Origin: Escherichia phage vB_EcoM-S1P5QW
Length of the DNA stretch: 64,000 nt
Sequence record: OL956808.1
Direction: 5' to 3' (one strand)
The number at the start of each line of letters is the position of its first letter. The stretch's first letter is position 1. The notes beneath the pieces were generated by a model, which had not been told where the DNA came from, did no database searches, and saw nothing but the letters and a program-made list of their open reading frames with translations. The position numbers and the translations under genes were made by a program. Below are positions 10,079 through 60,053 of the stretch, piece by piece.

Positions 10079-10152
<74 letters not shown>

Positions 10153-10156
10153 ATTT

Positions 10157-10807
10157 ATGTCTCGTCGTGAGACGCTCAGTTCTTTATTAGGGACTGATAT
10201 GCATTTTTATCTTTATAAAATAACAAATAAAATTAATAATAAAATTTATATTGGTGTGCATTCTACCGAAAATTTAGATGATGGATATATGGGTTCTGGT
10301 AAATTATTAAAAAGAGCCCAAGATAAATATGGTATAGAAAATTTTTCTAAAGAAATATTAGAGTATTTTGATGATAAAGAATCTATGCTTGAAGCCGAGA
10401 AAAATATTGTCACAGAAGAGTTTTTAAATAGACCAGATGTGTATAATTTAAAACTTGGAGGTGAAGGTGGATGGGATCATATAAATAATTATCCTATGAC
10501 AGATCAGCAACGCGAATTAATTTCATTGGGTGTTAAAAAGGCACATTCTAACGGAAAATTAAAAGGATGGTCTTCAAATGGATTAATGAAAAATGGCTTT
10601 GCTGGTAAAACTCATTCTCAAGAAGCTAAACGTAAAATAGCAAAAGCAAACGAAGCAAAAGTTTCTGCGAATGAAAGAAAAAGAAGAATAGAAATTTCTA
10701 AATTATATGATTTTTCTAAGCGGGGTGAATTATCTAAATATGCTAAGCATATTGGCGTAAGTCATACTCAAGCAAAAAGAATTCTAAATCAAATTAACAA
10801 TATATAA
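10157..10807 (+). mobile_element. segB: GIY-YIG homing endonuclease (SegB-like) inserted in tRNA cluster
   Basis: 216-aa ORF with GIY-YIG motifs (FYLYKI...KIYIGVHS) and repeated NUMOD3-like motifs; lies between tRNA-Gly and tRNA-Ser. Confidence 0.8.
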
Positions 10808-10813
10808 ATATTT

Positions 10814-10903
10814 GGAGGCGTGGCAGAGTGGTTTAATGCACCGGTCTTGAAAACCGGCAGTCGCTCCGGCGACTCATAGGTTCAAATCCTATCGCCTCCG
10901 CCA
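10814..10903 (+). tRNA. tRNA-Ser (anticodon UGA)
   Basis: acceptor GGAGGCG/CGCCTCC, anticodon loop CTTGAAA, long variable arm, CCA. Confidence 0.8.
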
Positions 10904-10908
10904 GTTTT

Positions 10909-10985
10909 GCTGATTTAGCTCAGTAGGTAGAGCAACTCACTTGTAATGAGAAGGTCGGCGGTTCGATTCCGTCAATCAGCACCAA
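10909..10985 (+). tRNA. tRNA-Thr (anticodon UGU)
   Basis: acceptor GCTGATT/AATCAGC, anticodon loop CTTGTAA, CCA. Confidence 0.8.
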
Positions 10986-10986
10986 G

Positions 10987-11061
10987 GCCCTGTAGCTGGA
11001 AGGTTCAAGCAAGCGACTCATAATCGCCAGATGGTGGTTCAATTCCACCCAGGGCCACCAA
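10987..11061 (+). tRNA. tRNA with CAU anticodon (Ile by analogy with T4 tRNA-Ile, or Met)
   Basis: acceptor GGCCCTG/CAGGGCC, anticodon loop CTCATAA; D-arm atypical. Confidence 0.65.
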
Positions 11062-11070
11062 ATTAATTTG

Positions 11071-11157
11071 GGGAGTTATCCCGTAGAGGTAGCGGTGTGG
11101 ACTGTAAATCCATTGTCATTGCGACTCGGGTGGTTCGACTCCATCACTCCCCACCAA
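11071..11157 (+). tRNA. tRNA-Tyr (anticodon GUA), type II
   Basis: acceptor GGGGAGT/ACTCCCC, anticodon loop CTGTAAA, long variable arm resembling bacterial tRNA-Tyr. Confidence 0.65.
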
Positions 11158-11160
11158 TTT

Positions 11161-11235
11161 GGATGTGTAGCTCAATGGCAGAGCGATCGCCTGTTAAGCG
11201 ATTGGTTATAGGTTCGAATCCTATCACTTCCGCCA
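11161..11235 (+). tRNA. tRNA-Asn (anticodon GUU)
   Basis: D-arm GCTCAATGGCAGAGC, anticodon stem ATCGC/GCGAT with loop CTGTTAA, T-arm ATAGGTTCGAATCCTAT, CCA; one acceptor mismatch. Confidence 0.65.
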
Positions 11236-11349
11236 AATTTGTGACAACTGTCACATTAATATCTACTTGACGCGATTATCGGGGTTGAACTGATCACTCT
11301 TCTCTTAATTTCGTGTGAAGACATCTTGATTGTTGGAGTAGGTATTAAT

Positions 11350-11425
11350 GTGGCCGTAGTTCAGTTGGTAGAACTCGAGATTGTGATTCTCGTAGTCATG
11401 GGTTCGACTCCCATCGGTCACCCCA
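11350..11425 (+). tRNA. tRNA-His (anticodon GUG)
   Basis: anticodon loop TTGTGAT, discriminator C73 then CCA, T-arm ATGGGTTCGACTCCCAT. Confidence 0.7.
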
Positions 11426-11429
11426 ATTA

Positions 11430-11505
11430 CGGGGCATAGCTCAGAAGGAAGAGCAAGGACCTTCTAAGTCCTGGGTCGTAGGTTCGATCCCTACTGCCTC
11501 GACCA
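11430..11505 (+). tRNA. tRNA-Arg (anticodon UCU)
   Basis: anticodon loop CTTCTAA, T-arm GTAGGTTCGATCCCTAC, CCA encoded. Confidence 0.8.
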
Positions 11506-11820
11506 AACAAGAAGCCGGGTCGCTACCGGTAAGTCGTCGGACTGATGTTCCCTGGGTAAGGACTGGCATTAACAAATCTTTACGATCGGTTAATGCCCCC
11601 TTACATCACAGCAGAAACGGCGCACCGAATTATCGATTCGAGGAAATATCTTTGCCGTAAGCCGAGTAGCGTTTTTGACGGAACGTTCGGATATGGTCGA
11701 GATATGGCCTTTTAAAATATTAAGTAGCGTCAACTGCTTAATAACCGGGTTCGAATCCCGGCGTTTCGTACAAACACTTGCCTTAGCAGGTGGAACCCCG
11801 ACAAGGTTGCCGCAAGGCTT
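11506..11820 (+). ncRNA. candidate small stable RNA region (T4 species 1/2, RNA C/D-like)
   Basis: ~300 nt without convincing ORF, relatively GC-rich, contains tRNA-like T-arm CCGGGTTCGAATCCCGG, ends at a hairpin terminator. Confidence 0.35.
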
Positions 11821-16285: not shown

Positions 16286-16816
<531 letters not shown>

Positions 16817-16910: not shown

Positions 16911-17384
16911 ATGAAAACATATCAAGAATTTATTACTGAAGCAGCTATTAATTCTCAAATTATTGCTGAATCTTTTACTGATCTTTTGAAATTTAAAAAA
17001 GGACAGAAAATCACTGCTGTACTGGATGATGGTACAGAAGTTGAGATGGATGTACAGGGATATAATTATGCAGTAGATGGAAAACTGTATAATAAATCTC
17101 ATGCTAAATTTGATTCATTTGACGACTTTGTTAATACAGTTGAAGATGAAAAAACTCGTCGATCCATTGCAACAGGTGATGCTAAGGTTCTTATGGCACA
17201 TGGTCATGAACGTATTCGCGCTAAACAGAATAAAATGGGTGAAGATAATTTTGCATTAGTTGGTTATCAATCTGGTAAACAAACTTATGGCTATCAACGT
17301 ACTGCTACCATGTATAACAAAAATGGTAAAATTGCCTTTGTGAATAGTAAAGGTTCTATTCAGTACGTTAAATCGTTCAAATAA
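16911..17384 (+). CDS. internal protein with capsid targeting sequence
   Basis: N-terminus MKTYQEFITEA matches T4 internal-protein CTS; 157 aa. Confidence 0.7.
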   Translation: MKTYQEFITEAAINSQIIAESFTDLLKFKKGQKITAVLDDGTEVEMDVQGYNYAVDGKLYNKSHAKFDSFDDFVNTVEDEKTRRSIATGDAKVLMAHGHERIRAKQNKMGEDNFALVGYQSGKQTYGYQRTATMYNKNGKIAFVNSKGSIQYVKSFK

Positions 17385-18077: not shown

Positions 18078-18403
18078 TGACAGACACTCAGCTTTTCGAA
18101 TATCTTTATTTTTCGCCAAAAACTATTAAAAATAAATTGGTGAATCATTTTGAAATTTTGGCAAATAACAACGTCTTGAGCGAATTTTATCCTAAGCAAT
18201 ACAAATTACAAAAAGGCGTATTCAAAGGATGCAGAGTTTTGTGTACTGCTCCTAATGCACGGCTAATGAATAAAATTCCATATTTTACCATGGAATTTAT
18301 TGATGGTCCTTTTAAAGGACTAATCACCCAAAGTTTAATGGCATATGATTCTGAGCCATTTTTAATTAAAGAACAATCTTGGATAAATTTATTTTCTAAT
18401 TGA
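18074..18403 (+). CDS. hypothetical protein
   Basis: 109 aa; start ATG overlaps upstream stop (ATGATGA). Confidence 0.5.
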   Translation: MMTDTQLFEYLYFSPKTIKNKLVNHFEILANNNVLSEFYPKQYKLQKGVFKGCRVLCTAPNARLMNKIPYFTMEFIDGPFKGLITQSLMAYDSEPFLIKEQSWINLFSN

Positions 18404-18409
18404 GGTTAT

Positions 18410-18772
18410 ATGAAAGCATATCAAATTCTTGAAGGCACACATAAAGGTACTATTTATTTTGAAGATGGTATTCAAGCACGAATTATTGTCTCTAAAACCT
18501 TTAAAGAGGACTCTTTTGTAGACCCAGAAATTTTCTACGGTTTGCATGCCCGTGAAATTGAAATTGAGCCACAGCCTACAGTTAAAATTGAAGGTGGTCA
18601 ACACCTGAACGTTAACGTTCTGCGTCGTGAAACTCTGGAAGATGCAGTTAAGCATCCGGAAAAATATCCGCAGCTGACCATCCGTGTATCCGGTTATGCA
18701 GTTCGCTTTAACTCTCTGACTCCGGAACAGCAGCGCGACGTTATCGCTCGTACCTTTACTGAGAGTCTGTAA
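18410..18772 (+). CDS. autonomous glycyl radical cofactor (GrcA/YfiD-like; T4 Y06I homolog)
   Basis: C-terminal ~60 aa ([39 protein letters not shown]...) carry the glycyl-radical RVSGY motif and look essentially identical to E. coli GrcA. Confidence 0.85.
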
Positions 18773-18993
18773 TGGCAAAGATAATTATTGAAGGTTCTAA
18801 AGATGTGCTAAATGCTTTCGCAGAATGGTTTAGTAATTCAGGCGAACAGCAATTTAATGAAGCCTGGAATATGGGTGATATTGATGGAATTTATCCTACG
18901 ACAGAAATTTCTGTTCAAGGATATGGCATTCATGAACCTATTCGTTTAGTTGAATATGATTTATGCACTGGTGAGGAAGTCAAATATGATTGA
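18772..18993 (+). CDS. hypothetical protein
   Basis: 73-aa ORF, ATGA overlap with upstream gene. Confidence 0.5.
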   Translation: MAKIIIEGSKDVLNAFAEWFSNSGEQQFNEAWNMGDIDGIYPTTEISVQGYGIHEPIRLVEYDLCTGEEVKYD

Positions 18994-19589: not shown

Positions 19590-20051
19590 ATGACTATCAA
19601 TACAGAAGTTTTTATCCGTCGAAATAAGCTTCGTCGTCACTTTGAGTCGGAGTTTCGTCAAATTAACAATGAGATTCGTGAGGCATCAAAAGCAGCAGGG
19701 GTCTCATCGTTTCATCTAAAATATTCTCAGCATCTTCTTGATCGTGCAATTCAACGGGAGATTGATGAGACATATGTTTTTGAATTATTCCATAAAATAA
19801 AAGACCATGTTTTAGAAGTTAATGAATTCCTGAGTATGCCTCCGCGTCCTGACATTGACGAGGATTTTATTGATGGGGTTGAATATCGTCCTGGACGTTT
19901 AGAAATCACAGATGGAAATCTTTGGCTTGGATTTACGGTTTGTAAGCCTAATGAGAAGTTCAAAAACCCGTCACTTCAATGCAGGATGGCAATTATCAAC
20001 AATCGTCGTTTACCAGGAAAGGCTTCTAAAGCAGTAATTAAAACTCAATGA
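19590..20051 (+). CDS. regB: site-specific RNA endonuclease RegB
   Basis: 153 aa, N-terminus MTINTEVFIRRNKLRRHF as recalled for T4 RegB; RBS GAGGAGA. Confidence 0.85.
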   Translation: MTINTEVFIRRNKLRRHFESEFRQINNEIREASKAAGVSSFHLKYSQHLLDRAIQREIDETYVFELFHKIKDHVLEVNEFLSMPPRPDIDEDFIDGVEYRPGRLEITDGNLWLGFTVCKPNEKFKNPSLQCRMAIINNRRLPGKASKAVIKTQ

Positions 20052-33927: not shown

Positions 33928-34220
33928 AAAAGCGTTTATTAGAAGATATTGCCGAAGCTTCAGATTTTCCTGAATGGACTCCATGCGCTGGGTTTGATAA
34001 AGGACTGCTAGTTACTGACGATTTAGATTTTAAACCTCCAGCATGGGATGCTATTATGGCTATGGTTGAACGACGTGAAAGAGCTTCTAAAAACGTTCCT
34101 AATTGCCCTGAGTGTGGAACTGAACAGGTGCAATTGGTCCATTGGCAGACTAATAATCTTCGTTATAAATGTCGTCATTGTAAACGCCGATTTGACCGAG
34201 AAGAAAATGACAAAGCGTAA
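33924..34220 (+). CDS. zinc-ribbon protein
   Basis: 98 aa with CPECG...CRHCKRRF. Confidence 0.5.
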
Positions 34221-34449
34221 AGAATATATGGAGGCTGCTGAAAAGGCAGTCCGTGAATTAGCAATAGCTTATTATAATGAACATGGTAAATTTCCTGATA
34301 GATACAGCGTGCTTAAATCAGCTTTAACTCGTTCATATAAAAATATGCTATCAGAAGTAAGTGATATTATATACAAACATAAAGAACAAACGGGCCAAAG
34401 TCTTGATTACGACGAGACTTTTAAACAAGTACTAGGAATTAAGGAATAA
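34207..34449 (+). CDS. hypothetical protein
   Basis: 80 aa from ATG 34207. Confidence 0.45.
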
Positions 34450-35717: not shown

Positions 35718-36191
35718 ATGTTATTGACTGGCAAATTATATAAAGAAGAAAAACAGAAATTTTATGATGCACAAAACGGTAAATGCTTAATTTGCCAACG
35801 AGAACTAAATCCTGATGTTCAAGCTAATCACCTCGACCATGACCATGAATTAAATGGACCAAAAGCAGGAAAGGTACGTGGATTGCTTTGTAATCTCTGC
35901 AATGCCGCAGAAGGTCAAATGAAGCACAAATTTAATCGTTCTGGCTTAAAGGGACAAGGTGTTGATTATCTTGAATGGTTAGAAAATTTACTTACTTATT
36001 TAAAATCCGATTACACCCAAAATAATATTCACCCTAACTTTGTTGGAGATAAAACAAAGGAATTTTCTCGTTTAGGAAAAGAGGAAATGATGGCTGAGAT
36101 GCTTCAAAGAGGATTTGAATATAATGAATCTGACACCAAAACACAGTTAATAGCTTCATTTAAGAAGCAGCTTAGAAAGAGTTTAAAATGA
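35718..36191 (+). CDS. 49: recombination endonuclease VII (Holliday junction resolvase)
   Basis: 157 aa; matches recalled T4 endo VII including zinc-binding CLICQ...HDHE...CNLCN. Confidence 0.92.
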   Translation: MLLTGKLYKEEKQKFYDAQNGKCLICQRELNPDVQANHLDHDHELNGPKAGKVRGLLCNLCNAAEGQMKHKFNRSGLKGQGVDYLEWLENLLTYLKSDYTQNNIHPNFVGDKTKEFSRLGKEEMMAEMLQRGFEYNESDTKTQLIASFKKQLRKSLK

Positions 36192-38005
36192 CAATTGAAA
36201 AAGAAATTGAAGGATTGATTCATAAAACTAATAAAGACCTTTTAAACGAGAATGCTAATAAAGATTCTCGTGTTTTTCCAACTCAACGGGACCTTATGGC
36301 TGGTATTGTGTCTAAACACATTGCCAAAAATATGGTCCCGTCTTTTATTATGAAAGCGCATGAAAGCGGAATTATTCATTTCCATGATATTGATTATTCC
36401 CCTGCTCTTCCATTTACTAATTGTTGTTTAGTAGATTTAAAAGGAATGCTTGAGAACGGATTTAAGCTTGGTAATGCACAGATTGAAACTCCTAAATCAA
36501 TTGGAGTTGCTACTGCAATTATGGCACAAATTACTGCACAGGTTGCTTCCCATCAATACGGCGGAACGACTTTTGCTAATGTAGATAAAGTACTTTCTCC
36601 TTATGTTAAACGCACCTATGCAAAACATATTGAGGATGCAGAAAAATGGCAAATCGCTGATGCGTTGAATTATGCTCAATCTAAAACAGAAAAAGACGTA
36701 TACGATGCATTCCAAGCTTATGAATATGAAGTAAATACTCTCTTTAGTTCAAACGGGCAAACACCTTTTGTAACAATTACATTTGGTACAGGAACTGACT
36801 GGACTGAACGAATGATTCAGAAAGCAATTCTGAAAAATCGTATTAAAGGTCTCGGTCGTGATGGGATAACTCCTATTTTTCCTAAGCTTGTTATGTTCGT
36901 CGAAGAAGGCGTTAATCTTTACAAAGACGATCCGAATTACGACATTAAGCAACTTGCTTTAGAGTGTGCAAGCAAAAGGATGTATCCTGATATTATTTCA
37001 GCTAAGAATAATAAAGCTATCACTGGTTCATCTGTTCCTGTTTCTCCAATGGGTTGCCGTAGTTTCTTGAGCGTATGGAAAGATTCGACTGGTAATGAAA
37101 TTCTTGATGGACGTAATAATCTTGGTGTTGTAACACTGAATCTTCCTCGCATTGCATTAGATTCTTATATTGGAACACAATTTAACGAACAGAAATTTGT
37201 TGAATTATTCAATGAACGAATGGATTTATGTTTTGAAGCTTTGATGTGTAGAATTAGTTCCTTAAAAGGAGTTAAAGCGACTGTTGCTCCTATTCTTTAC
37301 CAAGAAGGTGCATTCGGGGTTCGTCTTAAACCTGATGACGATATAATTGAGTTATTTAAAAACGGCAGAAGTTCAGTGTCTTTAGGATACATAGGTATTC
37401 ATGAATTGAATATTCTTGTTGGTCGTGACATTGGACAAGAAATTTTAACTAAAATGAATGCTCATCTTAAACAGTGGACTGAAAGAACCGGATTTGCTTT
37501 TAGTTTATATTCGACTCCTGCTGAAAACCTTTGTTATCGCTTCTGTAAACTCGATACAGAAAAATATGGAAGCGTAAAAGATGTTACCGATAAAGGTTGG
37601 TACACTAACAGTTTCCATGTTTCAGTAGAAGAAAATATTACTCCGTTTGAAAAGATTTCTCGTGAAGCGCCATATCATTTCATTGCGACAGGTGGTCACA
37701 TTTCTTATGTTGAACTTCCTGATATGAAAAATAACTTAAAAGGTCTTGAGGCCGTGTGGGATTATGCTGCACAGCATTTAGATTATTTTGGTGTTAATAT
37801 GCCGGTAGATAAATGTTTTACATGTGGAAGTACCCATGAAATGACTCCTACTGAAAACGGATTTGTTTGTTCTATTTGTGGAGAAACTGATCCTAAAAAG
37901 ATGAACACAATAAGAAGAACATGTGGTTATTTGGGAAATCCGAACGAACGCGGATTTAATCTCGGTAAAAATAAAGAAATCATGCATAGGGTTAAACACC
38001 AATGA
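36188..38005 (+). CDS. nrdD: anaerobic ribonucleoside-triphosphate reductase NrdD (uninterrupted)
   Basis: 605 aa; C-terminal glycyl radical region and CxxC pairs (CFTCGSTHEMTPTENGFVCSICG); no intron. Confidence 0.9.
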   Translation: MTIEKEIEGLIHKTNKDLLNENANKDSRVFPTQRDLMAGIVSKHIAKNMVPSFIMKAHESGIIHFHDIDYSPALPFTNCCLVDLKGMLENGFKLGNAQIETPKSIGVATAIMAQITAQVASHQYGGTTFANVDKVLSPYVKRTYAKHIEDAEKWQIADALNYAQSKTEKDVYDAFQAYEYEVNTLFSSNGQTPFVTITFGTGTDWTERMIQKAILKNRIKGLGRDGITPIFPKLVMFVEEGVNLYKDDPNYDIKQLALECASKRMYPDIISAKNNKAITGSSVPVSPMGCRSFLSVWKDSTGNEILDGRNNLGVVTLNLPRIALDSYIGTQFNEQKFVELFNERMDLCFEALMCRISSLKGVKATVAPILYQEGAFGVRLKPDDDIIELFKNGRSSVSLGYIGIHELNILVGRDIGQEILTKMNAHLKQWTERTGFAFSLYSTPAENLCYRFCKLDTEKYGSVKDVTDKGWYTNSFHVSVEENITPFEKISREAPYHFIATGGHISYVELPDMKNNLKGLEAVWDYAAQHLDYFGVNMPVDKCFTCGSTHEMTPTENGFVCSICGETDPKKMNTIRRTCGYLGNPNERGFNLGKNKEIMHRVKHQ

Positions 38006-38472
38006 ATTACGATAGATTTTATCCCTGTGATTTTGTGAATGGCCCTGGATGCAGGGTCGTTCTTTTCGTTACAGGTTGTTTGCATAAATGCGAAGGGTGT
38101 TATAATAAATCAACATGGAATGCTAGAAATGGTGCTCCATTCACTGGTGAAACACTAGAACAATTAATTGAATGTTTGAATAATGATTATATAGAAGGAT
38201 TAACTATAACCGGAGGAGACCCTCTTTATCCTGATAACAGAGACGTGATTCACTCTGTGGTTCAAACTATTAAAAATCTTTATCCCAATAAAAGCATTTG
38301 GTTGTGGACAGGATATAAGTTTGAAGATATTAAACAACTAGAAATGCTTAAATATGTTGATGTTATTATTGATGGGAAGTATGAGAAAAATCTTCCGACC
38401 AAAAAGCTGTGGCGAGGATCAGATAATCAGCGGCTTTGGTCAAATACCGATGGGGTGTGGAAACATGATTAA
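38002..38472 (+). CDS. nrdG: anaerobic RNR activating protein NrdG (radical SAM)
   Basis: 156 aa; Cys cluster CLHKCEGC. Confidence 0.85.
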   Translation: MNYDRFYPCDFVNGPGCRVVLFVTGCLHKCEGCYNKSTWNARNGAPFTGETLEQLIECLNNDYIEGLTITGGDPLYPDNRDVIHSVVQTIKNLYPNKSIWLWTGYKFEDIKQLEMLKYVDVIIDGKYEKNLPTKKLWRGSDNQRLWSNTDGVWKHD

Positions 38473-58625: not shown

Positions 58626-60053
58626 GTGGTAGAAATTATTCTTTCTCATCTTATATTTGATCAAGCTTATTTTTCAAAAGTTTGGCCATATATGGATTCA
58701 GAATATTTTGAAAGTGGTCCAGCTAAAAATACATTCAAATTAATTAAATCTCATGTCAATGAGTATCATAGCGTTCCATCTATTAATGCGTTAAATGTTG
58801 CATTAGAAAATAGTTCATTTACTGAAACAGAATATTCTGGTGTAAAAACACTTATTTCAAAACTGGCTGATTCTCCAGAAGACCACAGCTGGTTAGTAAA
58901 AGAAACAGAAAAATATGTTCAGCAAAGGGCGATGTTTAATGCTACGTCTAAAATAATCGAAATTCAAACTAATGCTGAGCTTCCTCCGGAAAAACGAAAT
59001 AAGAAAATGCCGGATGTTGGTGCTATTCCTGACATCATGCGGCAAGCATTATCTATTTCATTTGATAGTTACGTTGGTCATGATTGGATGGATGACTATG
59101 AAGCACGTTGGCTATCTTATATGAATAAAGCTCGTAAAGTTCCATTTAAACTCAGAATTCTAAACAAAATTACTAAAGGCGGAGCTGAGACTGGAACACT
59201 GAACGTTTTAATGGCTGGCGTTAACGTTGGTAAATCATTAGGTCTGTGTTCATTAGCAGCAGATTATTTACAGCTCGGACATAATGTTCTTTACATTTCC
59301 ATGGAAATGGCAGAAGAAGTCTGTGCTAAGCGTATTGACGCTAACATGCTTGATGTTTCTCTTGATGACATTGATGATGGGCATATTTCTTACGCTGAGT
59401 ATAAAGGAAAAATGGAAAAATGGCGTGAGAAATCTACTCTCGGTCGTTTAATCGTTAAACAGTATCCTACTGGTGGAGCAGACGCTAACACATTCAGGTC
59501 TCTCTTGAATGAATTGAAGCTCAAGAAGAATTTTGTTCCAACAATCATTATTGTCGACTATCTAGGTATTTGTAAATCTTGCCGCATCAGAGTTTATTCA
59601 GAAAATAGTTACACAACTGTTAAAGCTATTGCAGAGGAATTGCGTGCTCTGGCTGTTGAAACCGAAACTGTTCTTTGGACTGCAGCACAGGTTGGTAAAC
59701 AAGCTTGGGACTCTTCCGATGTTAACATGAGCGATATTGCAGAATCTGCTGGTCTTCCAGCAACAGCTGATTTTATGCTTGCGGTCATTGAAACCGAGGA
59801 GCTAGCAGCTGCTGAACAACAACTCATTAAGCAAATCAAATCACGATATGGCGATAAGAACAAATGGAATAAGTTTTTGATGGGTGTTCAAAAAGGAAAT
59901 CAGAAATGGGTAGAAATTGAACAAGATTCTACTCCAACCGAAGTGAGTGAAGTAGCAGGTTCACAACAGATTCAGGCTGAACAGAATCGCTATCAAAGAA
60001 ACGAATCAGCTCGAGCTCAGTTAGATGCTTTGGCAAATGAATTAAAATTTTAG
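58626..60053 (+). CDS. 41: replicative DNA helicase gp41 (DnaB-like)
   Basis: 475 aa, GTG start; Walker A GVNVGKS; N-terminus MVEIILSHLIFDQAYF as recalled for T4 gp41. Confidence 0.95.
   Translation: MVEIILSHLIFDQAYFSKVWPYMDSEYFESGPAKNTFKLIKSHVNEYHSVPSINALNVALENSSFTETEYSGVKTLISKLADSPEDHSWLVKETEKYVQQRAMFNATSKIIEIQTNAELPPEKRNKKMPDVGAIPDIMRQALSISFDSYVGHDWMDDYEARWLSYMNKARKVPFKLRILNKITKGGAETGTLNVLMAGVNVGKSLGLCSLAADYLQLGHNVLYISMEMAEEVCAKRIDANMLDVSLDDIDDGHISYAEYKGKMEKWREKSTLGRLIVKQYPTGGADANTFRSLLNELKLKKNFVPTIIIVDYLGICKSCRIRVYSENSYTTVKAIAEELRALAVETETVLWTAAQVGKQAWDSSDVNMSDIAESAGLPATADFMLAVIETEELAAAEQQLIKQIKSRYGDKNKWNKFLMGVQKGNQKWVEIEQDSTPTEVSEVAGSQQIQAEQNRYQRNESARAQLDALANELKF

Follow-up and report, generated by a model that had tools for sequence, protein, structure and literature searches.

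How does a gene of a T4-like phage come to carry, in its interior, a stretch of DNA identical to the chromosome of the host? The question is raised by vs.6, a gene in a 64,000-nt stretch of DNA from Escherichia phage vB_EcoM-S1P5QW (sequence record OL956808.1), the whole of which we refer to as the window. The gene encodes a homolog of GrcA (YfiD), the autonomous glycyl radical cofactor of E. coli, and an earlier note on this DNA had described it as a compositional mosaic with a host-like 3' half. The answer that we consider highly probable is that vs.6 is a long-resident phage homolog of grcA whose radical domain has been overwritten by the grcA of the host, and that this has happened at least twice independently. 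The parts of the gene on which the argument rests are these:

18410-18772, forward strand: vs.6/Y06I-type gene for an autonomous glycyl radical cofactor (GrcA homolog) of 120 aa, identified from the open reading frame (ORF), Pfam, a PDB match and orthologs.
18410-18587, forward strand: phage-native 5' half, comprising codons 1-59 and the first bases of codon 60, with phage G+C content (GC) and codons and no blastn match to E. coli.
18588-18760, forward strand: host-derived conversion tract (hereafter the tract), with 100% identity to E. coli grcA; residues 61-117, which it encodes, form the glycyl radical domain.
18692-18694, forward strand: GGT codon of Gly95, equivalent to G102 of E. coli GrcA and predicted to bear the radical in RVSGYAVRF (from the codon alignment; role of the glycine via PMC8683613).
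18761-18772, forward strand: phage-type 3' end GAG AGT CTG TAA, with a GAGAG Shine-Dalgarno-like motif and a stop codon that overlaps the next ATG (TAATG), recognised by comparison with relatives.

The identity of the gene product is clear from several searches. In Pfam the 120-aa protein scored 66.8 bits against PF01228 (Gly_radical; cutoff 22.2) over residues 61-101, and the top PDB match found by phmmer was 6owr_A, E. coli YfiD (E = 8.6e-42, residues 22-120). The 6owr entry is a nuclear magnetic resonance structure of YfiD, and the radical domain of the vs.6 protein is identical to that of the protein in this structure. Orthologs in Tequatrovirus records are annotated as vs.6 or as "autonomous glycyl radical cofactor GrcA"; compared with the copy of T4_ev240 the vs.6 protein has two amino acid changes (P54Q and I60V), both of which lie outside residues 61-120.

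Base composition changes sharply within the gene. In 100-nt windows GC rises from 0.26-0.34 (18375-18450) to 0.45-0.52 (18575-18675) and returns to around 0.35 past 18775, and the 5' and 3' halves of vs.6 have GC of 0.350 and 0.492 and third-position GC (GC3) of 0.220 and 0.426, respectively. With a GC of 0.491 the 173-nt tract lies at z = 3.2 among all 63,828 windows of 173 nt in the 64 kb, and this level is reached elsewhere only at a tRNA cluster (10.8-11.7 kb) and at the single position 59642. Codon usage was scored as a log-likelihood ratio (LLR) between E. coli and phage tables, in bits per codon over 61-codon windows, the phage table being built from 61 long ORFs of the window and the E. 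coli table from 37 annotated genes. The 5' half scored -0.263, typical of the phage, and the 3' half +0.359, as compared with a mean of +0.48 for the E. coli genes. None of the 11,572 windows of the phage null (-0.361 +/- 0.137, maximum +0.140) scored as high as the 3' half of vs.6, which ranks first in the 64 kb for E. coli-like codon usage; the second most E. coli-like 61-codon stretch is in the ORF at 34048-34449 (LLR +0.14). The AT-rich, phage-like N-terminal half and the switch to E. coli-like codons near 18580 that the earlier note had described are both borne out by these formal shifts.

Comparison with host genomes gave the same division of the gene. Nucleotides 179-363 of vs.6 match grcA at 98.9% in 5,426 of 5,426 complete E. 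coli genomes, while nucleotides 1-178 gave no blastn alignment to any of them, so that host identity is confined to the 3' part. In a codon alignment with grcA of E. coli SK1144 there are only two differences over nucleotides 179-363, both synonymous and both in codons 118 and 119; over 18588-18760 there are none (173/173 positions, synonymous sites included, synonymous divergence (dS) = 0). In 5,156 of the 5,426 genomes the identity over the tract alone is 99% or higher. The maximum chi-square breakpoint falls at position 18588, with 73 of 151 sites identical to its left and 180 of 182 to its right (Fisher p = 1e-30). At the protein level residues 61-120 are identical to E. coli GrcA, RVSGYAVRF included, in keeping with the earlier note, which had called the C-terminus near-identical. 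Within positions 1-25000 of the window the tract is the sole megablast-level match to the E. coli chromosome, the count of chromosomal matches being the same as for the tract alone.

We then asked whether the host-like stretch could be an artefact of chimeric assembly or of contaminating host reads, given that host DNA does occur in phage lysates. The probability of this is practically nil. The same in-frame junctions are present in around 640 independently sequenced phage records, T2, T4, RB27 and PP01 among them, and the phage copies have derived substitutions of their own. Moreover the T4 protein, Y06I, has been expressed and assayed biochemically, according to a passage in PMC8683613.

The donor can be named. 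The tract differs from E. coli at 0 positions, from a neighbouring Escherichia species at 2 and from Citrobacter at 14, and its dS increases from 0 for E. coli through 0.38 for Citrobacter and 0.59 for K. pneumoniae to 1.13 for Salmonella. At the sites in the tract that distinguish E. coli from K. pneumoniae the window has the E. coli state at 21 of 21. The 3' end of pflB/tdcE was also considered as a source and was rejected, pflB being around 80% identical as against 100% for grcA.

Identity of sequence alone gives no direction, and the 3' halves of E. coli and K. pneumoniae grcA might in principle have come from phages. We regard this as extremely improbable. Between E. coli and K. pneumoniae the two halves of grcA have diverged in parallel, as in vertical descent (dS 0.69 for the 5' half and 0.59 for the 3' half), and among the Enterobacteriaceae the 3' halves diverge in step with the 5' halves. 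Host grcA lies in the context ung-grcA-eamB, at the same locus in all 5,426 E. coli genomes. The codon usage and GC of the tract are those of the host and not of the phage, and the native sequences of phage relatives are quite different. Because the host halves diverge in parallel, the locus context is constant and the tract has host codon usage, the direction of transfer is from host to phage.

What existed in the phage before the transfer was addressed with a comparison set of 80 viral homologs from IMG/VR (the L-numbered loci below) and around 20 annotated phage records. The best in-frame ungapped identity of the 5' half to the 5' half of grcA is 37%, which is random-level nucleotide identity. 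When 15 phage and 70 distinct bacterial N-terminal halves were compared with hhalign, they were aligned with a probability of 95.1% (E = 3.1e-8, 49 aligned columns). As judged at the profile level only, the 5' half is a remote, diverged homolog of the bacterial GrcA N-terminus, and the homology between the two genes extends over their full length. Orthologs of the 5' half are clear in all T4-like genera, with a shared ...ARI.VSK pattern.

The other end of the gene also belongs to the phage lineage. The final codons are GAG AGT followed by CTG or TTG in Tequatrovirus and by CTA in Mosigvirus, as compared with GAA AGC CTG in E. coli. The GAG AGT end states are common to RB16-type Pseudotevenvirus contigs (L014/L016), Slopekvirus (L019/L020, Roth90) and Mosigvirus; an exception is RB43 itself (L017/L018), which has E. 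coli-like GAA AGC. The gene ends in TAATG, with the stop overlapping the next start, in every lineage. In most lineages the last codons contain a purine-rich Shine-Dalgarno-like motif (GAGAG, GAGG or AAGGAAA), RB43 having only GGAAAG, and the depositors of Klebsiella phage Mineola annotated a downstream ribosome-binding site inside the equivalent codons.

A native state of the replaced region is preserved in Karamvirus (Entb_43, L009-L013), where the 3' half is AT-rich, GC is flat across the gene (0.38/0.39) and GC3 is 0.22-0.30; against around 90 bacterial grcA genes this 3' half reaches no more than 75-80% identity. L009-L012 share 91-96% identity with Entb_43, and L017-L018 share 99-100% with RB43. 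Because the 5' half and the last codons are of the phage lineage, and because Karamvirus keeps a native 3' half, a full-length phage gene existed before the conversion. These comparisons support a host segment that is an internal gene-conversion patch, and neither a fused 3' end nor a host fragment joined to a phage ORF. The replaced codons, 60/61-117, coincide exactly with the segment of GrcA whose counterpart by homology is the C-terminal glycyl radical domain of pyruvate formate-lyase (PFL; PflB/TdcE; PFL residues ~697-759). Of the proposal that the host 3' half was acquired recently, the recent host origin stands, with 173 nt and no differences to E. coli; the extent does not, in that the last four codons are of the phage lineage and the whole 3' half was not acquired.

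The same data bear on a capture of the whole gene from E. coli on a single occasion, followed by very fast divergence of the 5' half and by selection that froze the 3' half. Both halves are indeed homologous to the corresponding halves of bacterial GrcA, and the radical domain is under strong protein constraint, being 100% identical across many Enterobacteriaceae. Constraint on the protein, however, cannot keep around 44 synonymous sites identical (dS = 0) beside a 5' half of 37% identity, and a strong constraint on the synonymous sites of the domain is contradicted by the AT-rich Karamvirus copies. Furthermore, the 5' half has orthologs in genera in which an AT-rich 3' half shows only 75-80% identity to hosts, and the last codons are phage-type. 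A single capture is hence very unlikely.

A second case of the same kind is found in phages of Klebsiella. We compared the Klebsiella Jiaodaviruses (Mineola, LilPanda and KPV15, the last of which is L028) with grcA DNA of K. pneumoniae, K. variicola, K. aerogenes and K. michiganensis. Their vs.6 genes have a phage-type 5' half and 3' end and a middle tract with a GC of 0.56. KPV15 is 99.4% identical to K. pneumoniae grcA over 158 nt, with an exact run of 140 nt, and KPV15 and LilPanda each have the K. pneumoniae state at 19 of 21 diagnostic sites. At least 95% identity to the K. pneumoniae tract is found in 115 phage records, and those sampled are all Klebsiella phages. The 5' junction lies at the same place as in the E. 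coli phages (GAAGG...) and the 3' junction around 25 nt before the stop. By these sequence comparisons host-to-phage conversion of the radical domain has happened at least twice, from two host species. The alignments themselves demonstrate the anatomy of the tract, which species donated it, which way it was transferred and that there were two independent events.

Some copies in the comparison set depart from this architecture. In the IMG/VR copy of KPV15 (L028, ~1452-1862) the 5' half is out of frame with the radical domain and has several stops in the domain frame, which points either to a sequencing error or to a 5' half that has become a pseudogene beside a freshly host-identical tract. L037 and L039, on contigs of 85-152 kb, have an in-frame stop in the N-terminal half (…ARCIC*VNGKY…) with the radical domain intact. 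On the 109-118 kb contigs of L038 and L042 the radical domain is preceded by around 120 stop-free residues, as compared with around 60 in vs.6; these residues do not resemble the 5' half of vs.6, the tblastn match covering query residues 51-120 only, and if translated from an early start codon they would represent a different fusion architecture. The 19-kb contig of L031 carries a fully bacterial-type grcA (MITGIQITKA…) with a 3' half 91% identical to Yersinia grcA; rather than a phage copy it is likely to be host DNA, or the flank of a prophage, in a viral-labelled contig.

In three further groups, RB43 (L017/L018), RB16-like phages (L014-L016) and Slopekvirus (L019/L020, L165), GC jumps within vs.6 from 0.38 to 0.49. 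The residues of the radical domain match the host type exactly, with LEDAVKH (E. coli type) in RB43 and the RB16-like phages and LLDAVEH (Klebsiella type) in Slopekvirus. The tracts are only around 82% identical to any sampled grcA, with dS saturated. These tracts may stem from older conversions and be drifting back to phage composition, or may have come from unsampled donors.

The E. coli tract is widespread. In the phage collection 642 records (Tequatrovirus and Mosigvirus) carry it at an identity of at least 95%; there are almost none at 90-95%, and the next ones lie at 80-90%. The 5' half is 87.6-100% identical in around 650 Tequatrovirus and Mosigvirus records, which fall into two groups, 480 at 95% or above and around 170 at 87-95%, the latter being Mosigvirus. 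Between the window and the Mosigvirus locus L008 flanking genes are 70-88% identical and the dS of the 5' half is 0.40, while the tract has 0 differences; between the two genera dS is 0.40 for the 5' half and 0-0.12 for the tract. Because the flanks and the 5' half have diverged and the tract is identical, the tract is younger than the split of Tequatrovirus and Mosigvirus, and it either entered the two genera independently or moved between them.

Two accounts of this history were weighed. In the first, a single host-to-phage conversion took place in one Tequatrovirus/Mosigvirus ancestor and was followed by phage-phage recombination in co-infection, without repeated exchange with the host. Consistent with this, the two genera share the same junctions as far as these can be resolved, tract and 5' half show about equal diversity within each genus, and the 5' half of vs.6 is closer between the genera (around 90%) than are the flanking genes. 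In addition, none of the five tract variants of Mosigvirus AV118 was found in the 5,426 E. coli genomes, and the two-site haplotype 192G+219C of L003 was absent from the E. coli genomes searched.

Other observations point away from a single event. The 21 phage copies compared differ from the E. coli consensus of the tract at 0-9 sites, all synonymous, and the distances are over-dispersed (mean 2.3, variance 5.1). All five of the five sampled Escherichia polymorphisms in the tract (192G, 219C, 282A, 204A and 282T) also occur in phage copies. The endpoints differ too, the T4 tract starting at 178G and ending before 348 and that of the window starting at 179 and ending after 351. Homoplasy at four-fold degenerate sites could explain all three observations, and the single-nucleotide coincidences in particular fit either repeated host exchange or homoplasy. 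On balance we give a single conversion in a common ancestor slightly less than an even chance.

In the second account lytic T4-like phages repeatedly re-copy the radical domain from their current host, so that phage and host copies evolve in concert and stay matched to PflA and PflB. We put this forward only tentatively, as a possible history on the doubtful side of even. If re-copying were true, the 173 bp of perfect identity would ease further conversion and the process would reinforce itself, and the tracts of Tequatrovirus/Mosigvirus, Jiaodavirus, Pseudotevenvirus and Slopekvirus would be stages of one cycle of conversion and subsequent drift to phage composition. A general rule, by which all T4-like and T5-like phages would track their hosts, was rejected: among the 80 IMG/VR loci near-identity to a host is limited to KPV15 and the Tequatrovirus/Mosigvirus group. 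For most of the remaining copies, those of T5-like phages included, identity to hosts is 70-84%, and the T5-like phages keep native versions.

Several points weigh against our overall reading, that host grcA has overwritten the radical domain of a resident phage gene on at least two occasions. The vs.6 protein scores 153.3 bits (residues 20-120) on the NCBIfam GrcA model (TIGR04365; IPR011140), below the equivalog cutoff of 170, with E. coli GrcA at 233.9; it falls under the cutoff because its N-terminal half is divergent. The tract does not track the host of isolation, because its E. coli form is also present in Tequatroviruses that were isolated on Yersinia or Citrobacter. The pattern is also not universal, in that no phage record has a Salmonella-type tract above 90% and only one has an Enterobacter-type tract at 90-95%, with none higher. 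The initial event would have needed recombination at only around 80% identity, which should be rare. Finally, that the mechanism was recombination (gene conversion) between a T4-like phage and chromosomal grcA, and that a host-matched domain confers a selective advantage, are both matters that we infer.

The vs.6 gene lies between the T4 lysozyme gene e (16322-16816) and regB (19590-20051), with nudE and other T-even early genes nearby, and the 5.7 kb around it are 97-99% identical to Tequatrovirus genomes such as that of Shigella phage Sf22. The further features needed below are:

18402-18405, forward strand: GAGG Shine-Dalgarno-like motif 4 nt upstream of the vs.6 ATG, read from the sequence, with a putative function.
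18772-18993, forward strand: downstream vs.5-like ORF of 73 aa, predicted to be translationally coupled to vs.6 (relatives annotate vs.5).
36188-38005, forward strand: ORF for nrdD, anaerobic ribonucleotide reductase, 605 aa.
38002-38472, forward strand: ORF for nrdG, activase of the anaerobic ribonucleotide reductase, 156 aa.

The last two we take to be nrdD and nrdG from the likeness of their N-terminal sequences to T4 NrdD and NrdG. Just downstream of e, the segment 16910-17400, which contains an ORF of 157 aa (16911-17384), is unrelated (31-53% identity) in L003 and L004, two loci that are otherwise 97-99% identical to the window; in L005 and L006 the segment is conserved. The annotations of relatives show internal head proteins at this position, and the segment has the look of an exchangeable cassette. 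At 10079-11771 nine tRNA genes (Gly, Ser, Thr, Met, Tyr, Asn, His, Arg and Lys) are clustered. Around 260 E. coli plasmid records match part of positions 1-25000 at 80-90%; among the matches listed, one record covers 11067-11159, annotated as tRNA-Tyr, at 90.5%. Plasmids that match the tRNA region may be phage-plasmids with related tRNA genes.

NrdD uses formate made by PFL as its reductant. How the vs.6 product may act follows from its relatives: the passage in PMC8683613, citing Wagner et al. 2001, names E. coli YfiD/GrcA and T4 Y06I as the two spare-part proteins that have been validated, on which PFL activase places a glycyl radical and which then bind oxygen-cleaved PFL and restore its activity. 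By analogy the 14-kDa vs.6 product is expected to work alike, with activation by host PflA and docking into oxygen-cleaved PflB. The formate made by PFL would then serve phage NrdD, which would tie vs.6 to anaerobic deoxynucleotide (dNTP) synthesis. The earlier note had linked the gene with nrdD/nrdG as an investment in anaerobic glycyl radical enzymes; both genes are present, and the link is a reasonable supposition.

For the transfer itself we propose a simple model. During infection the very active recombination system of T4 would have taken grcA on the host chromosome as the template for that part of vs.6 which is homologous to it. The 5' junction would be set where the similarity of phage and host begins (GAAGGTGG, EGGQH), and the 3' junction by the end of homology together with a presumed need to keep the ribosome-binding motif of the downstream gene. 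Import of the exact domain of the host would give the best fit to host PflA and PflB, a plausible advantage.

Such copying has a precedent in classical T4 genetics, where, as marker rescue shows, homologous DNA in the cell readily finds its way into the phage genome through copying by the recombination enzymes of T4. Marker rescue differs in being a laboratory procedure with cloned phage DNA on plasmids; the donor of the vs.6 tract is a native chromosomal gene and the product is fixed in nature. Among natural systems the closest likeness is to the photosynthesis genes of cyanophages, for which Zeidner et al. in 2005 reportedly described intragenic recombination between host and phage. For psbA and psbD such recombination, with patchy %G+C, was described by Sullivan et al. 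2006 (PMC1484495). In both systems an auxiliary metabolic gene of lytic T4-like phages carries patches of host sequence, with patchy %G+C and recombination signals, and the product, as for psbA, works together with partner proteins of the host. The vs.6 patch differs from psbA in being single, sharply bounded and 100% identical to a named donor species, and a sister genus provides a natural replicate that involves another host species. It also occurs in the best-studied group of coliphages, which have hydroxymethylcytosine DNA and degrade the DNA of the host. In contrast to psbA/psbD, we found no evidence for a phage-to-host direction in the grcA/vs.6 comparisons.

E. coli GrcA and T4 Y06I are, like the vs.6 protein, small stand-alone proteins with the RVSGYAVRF radical motif. 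E. coli GrcA differs in having 127 aa as against 120, and the N-terminal 60 residues of the vs.6 protein are only remotely similar to it; vs.6 also differs in its location, within a phage early-gene cluster and with predicted translational coupling to vs.5.

The gene and its function were already known, vs.6 having been noted (PMC1524935) as an ORF that, like few others, is conserved in every T4-like genome, and host-to-phage patches are a known phenomenon from cyanophage psbA/psbD. In the literature searched we found no description of the host-identical tract or of a host patch in vs.6, although an earlier mention in the main T4 genome review is possible. The case of vs.6 stands out in its sharpness, in its named donor species, in its natural replicate and in its occurrence in T-even phages that contain hydroxymethylcytosine. 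There is also a practical side, since grcA was chosen as a PCR/qPCR (polymerase chain reaction and its quantitative form) marker for Straboviridae in a 2026 typing study (PMC12845203). The most conserved stretch of phage grcA is identical to E. coli DNA, and primers, if placed there, would also amplify DNA of the host.

For the biology of the T-even phages the tract has a wider meaning. They destroy the DNA of the host and carry a modified cytosine in their own, and they are generally treated as almost without nucleotide similarity to E. coli. The presence of the tract across hundreds of isolates, together with the parallel in Klebsiella phages, is clean natural evidence that host chromosomal DNA enters T-even genomes by homologous recombination, and its fixation in those isolates suggests that selection keeps the result. 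The tract offers a locus at which gene flow from host to phage may be measured directly, and at which the match of a repair part to the enzymes of the host may be tested.

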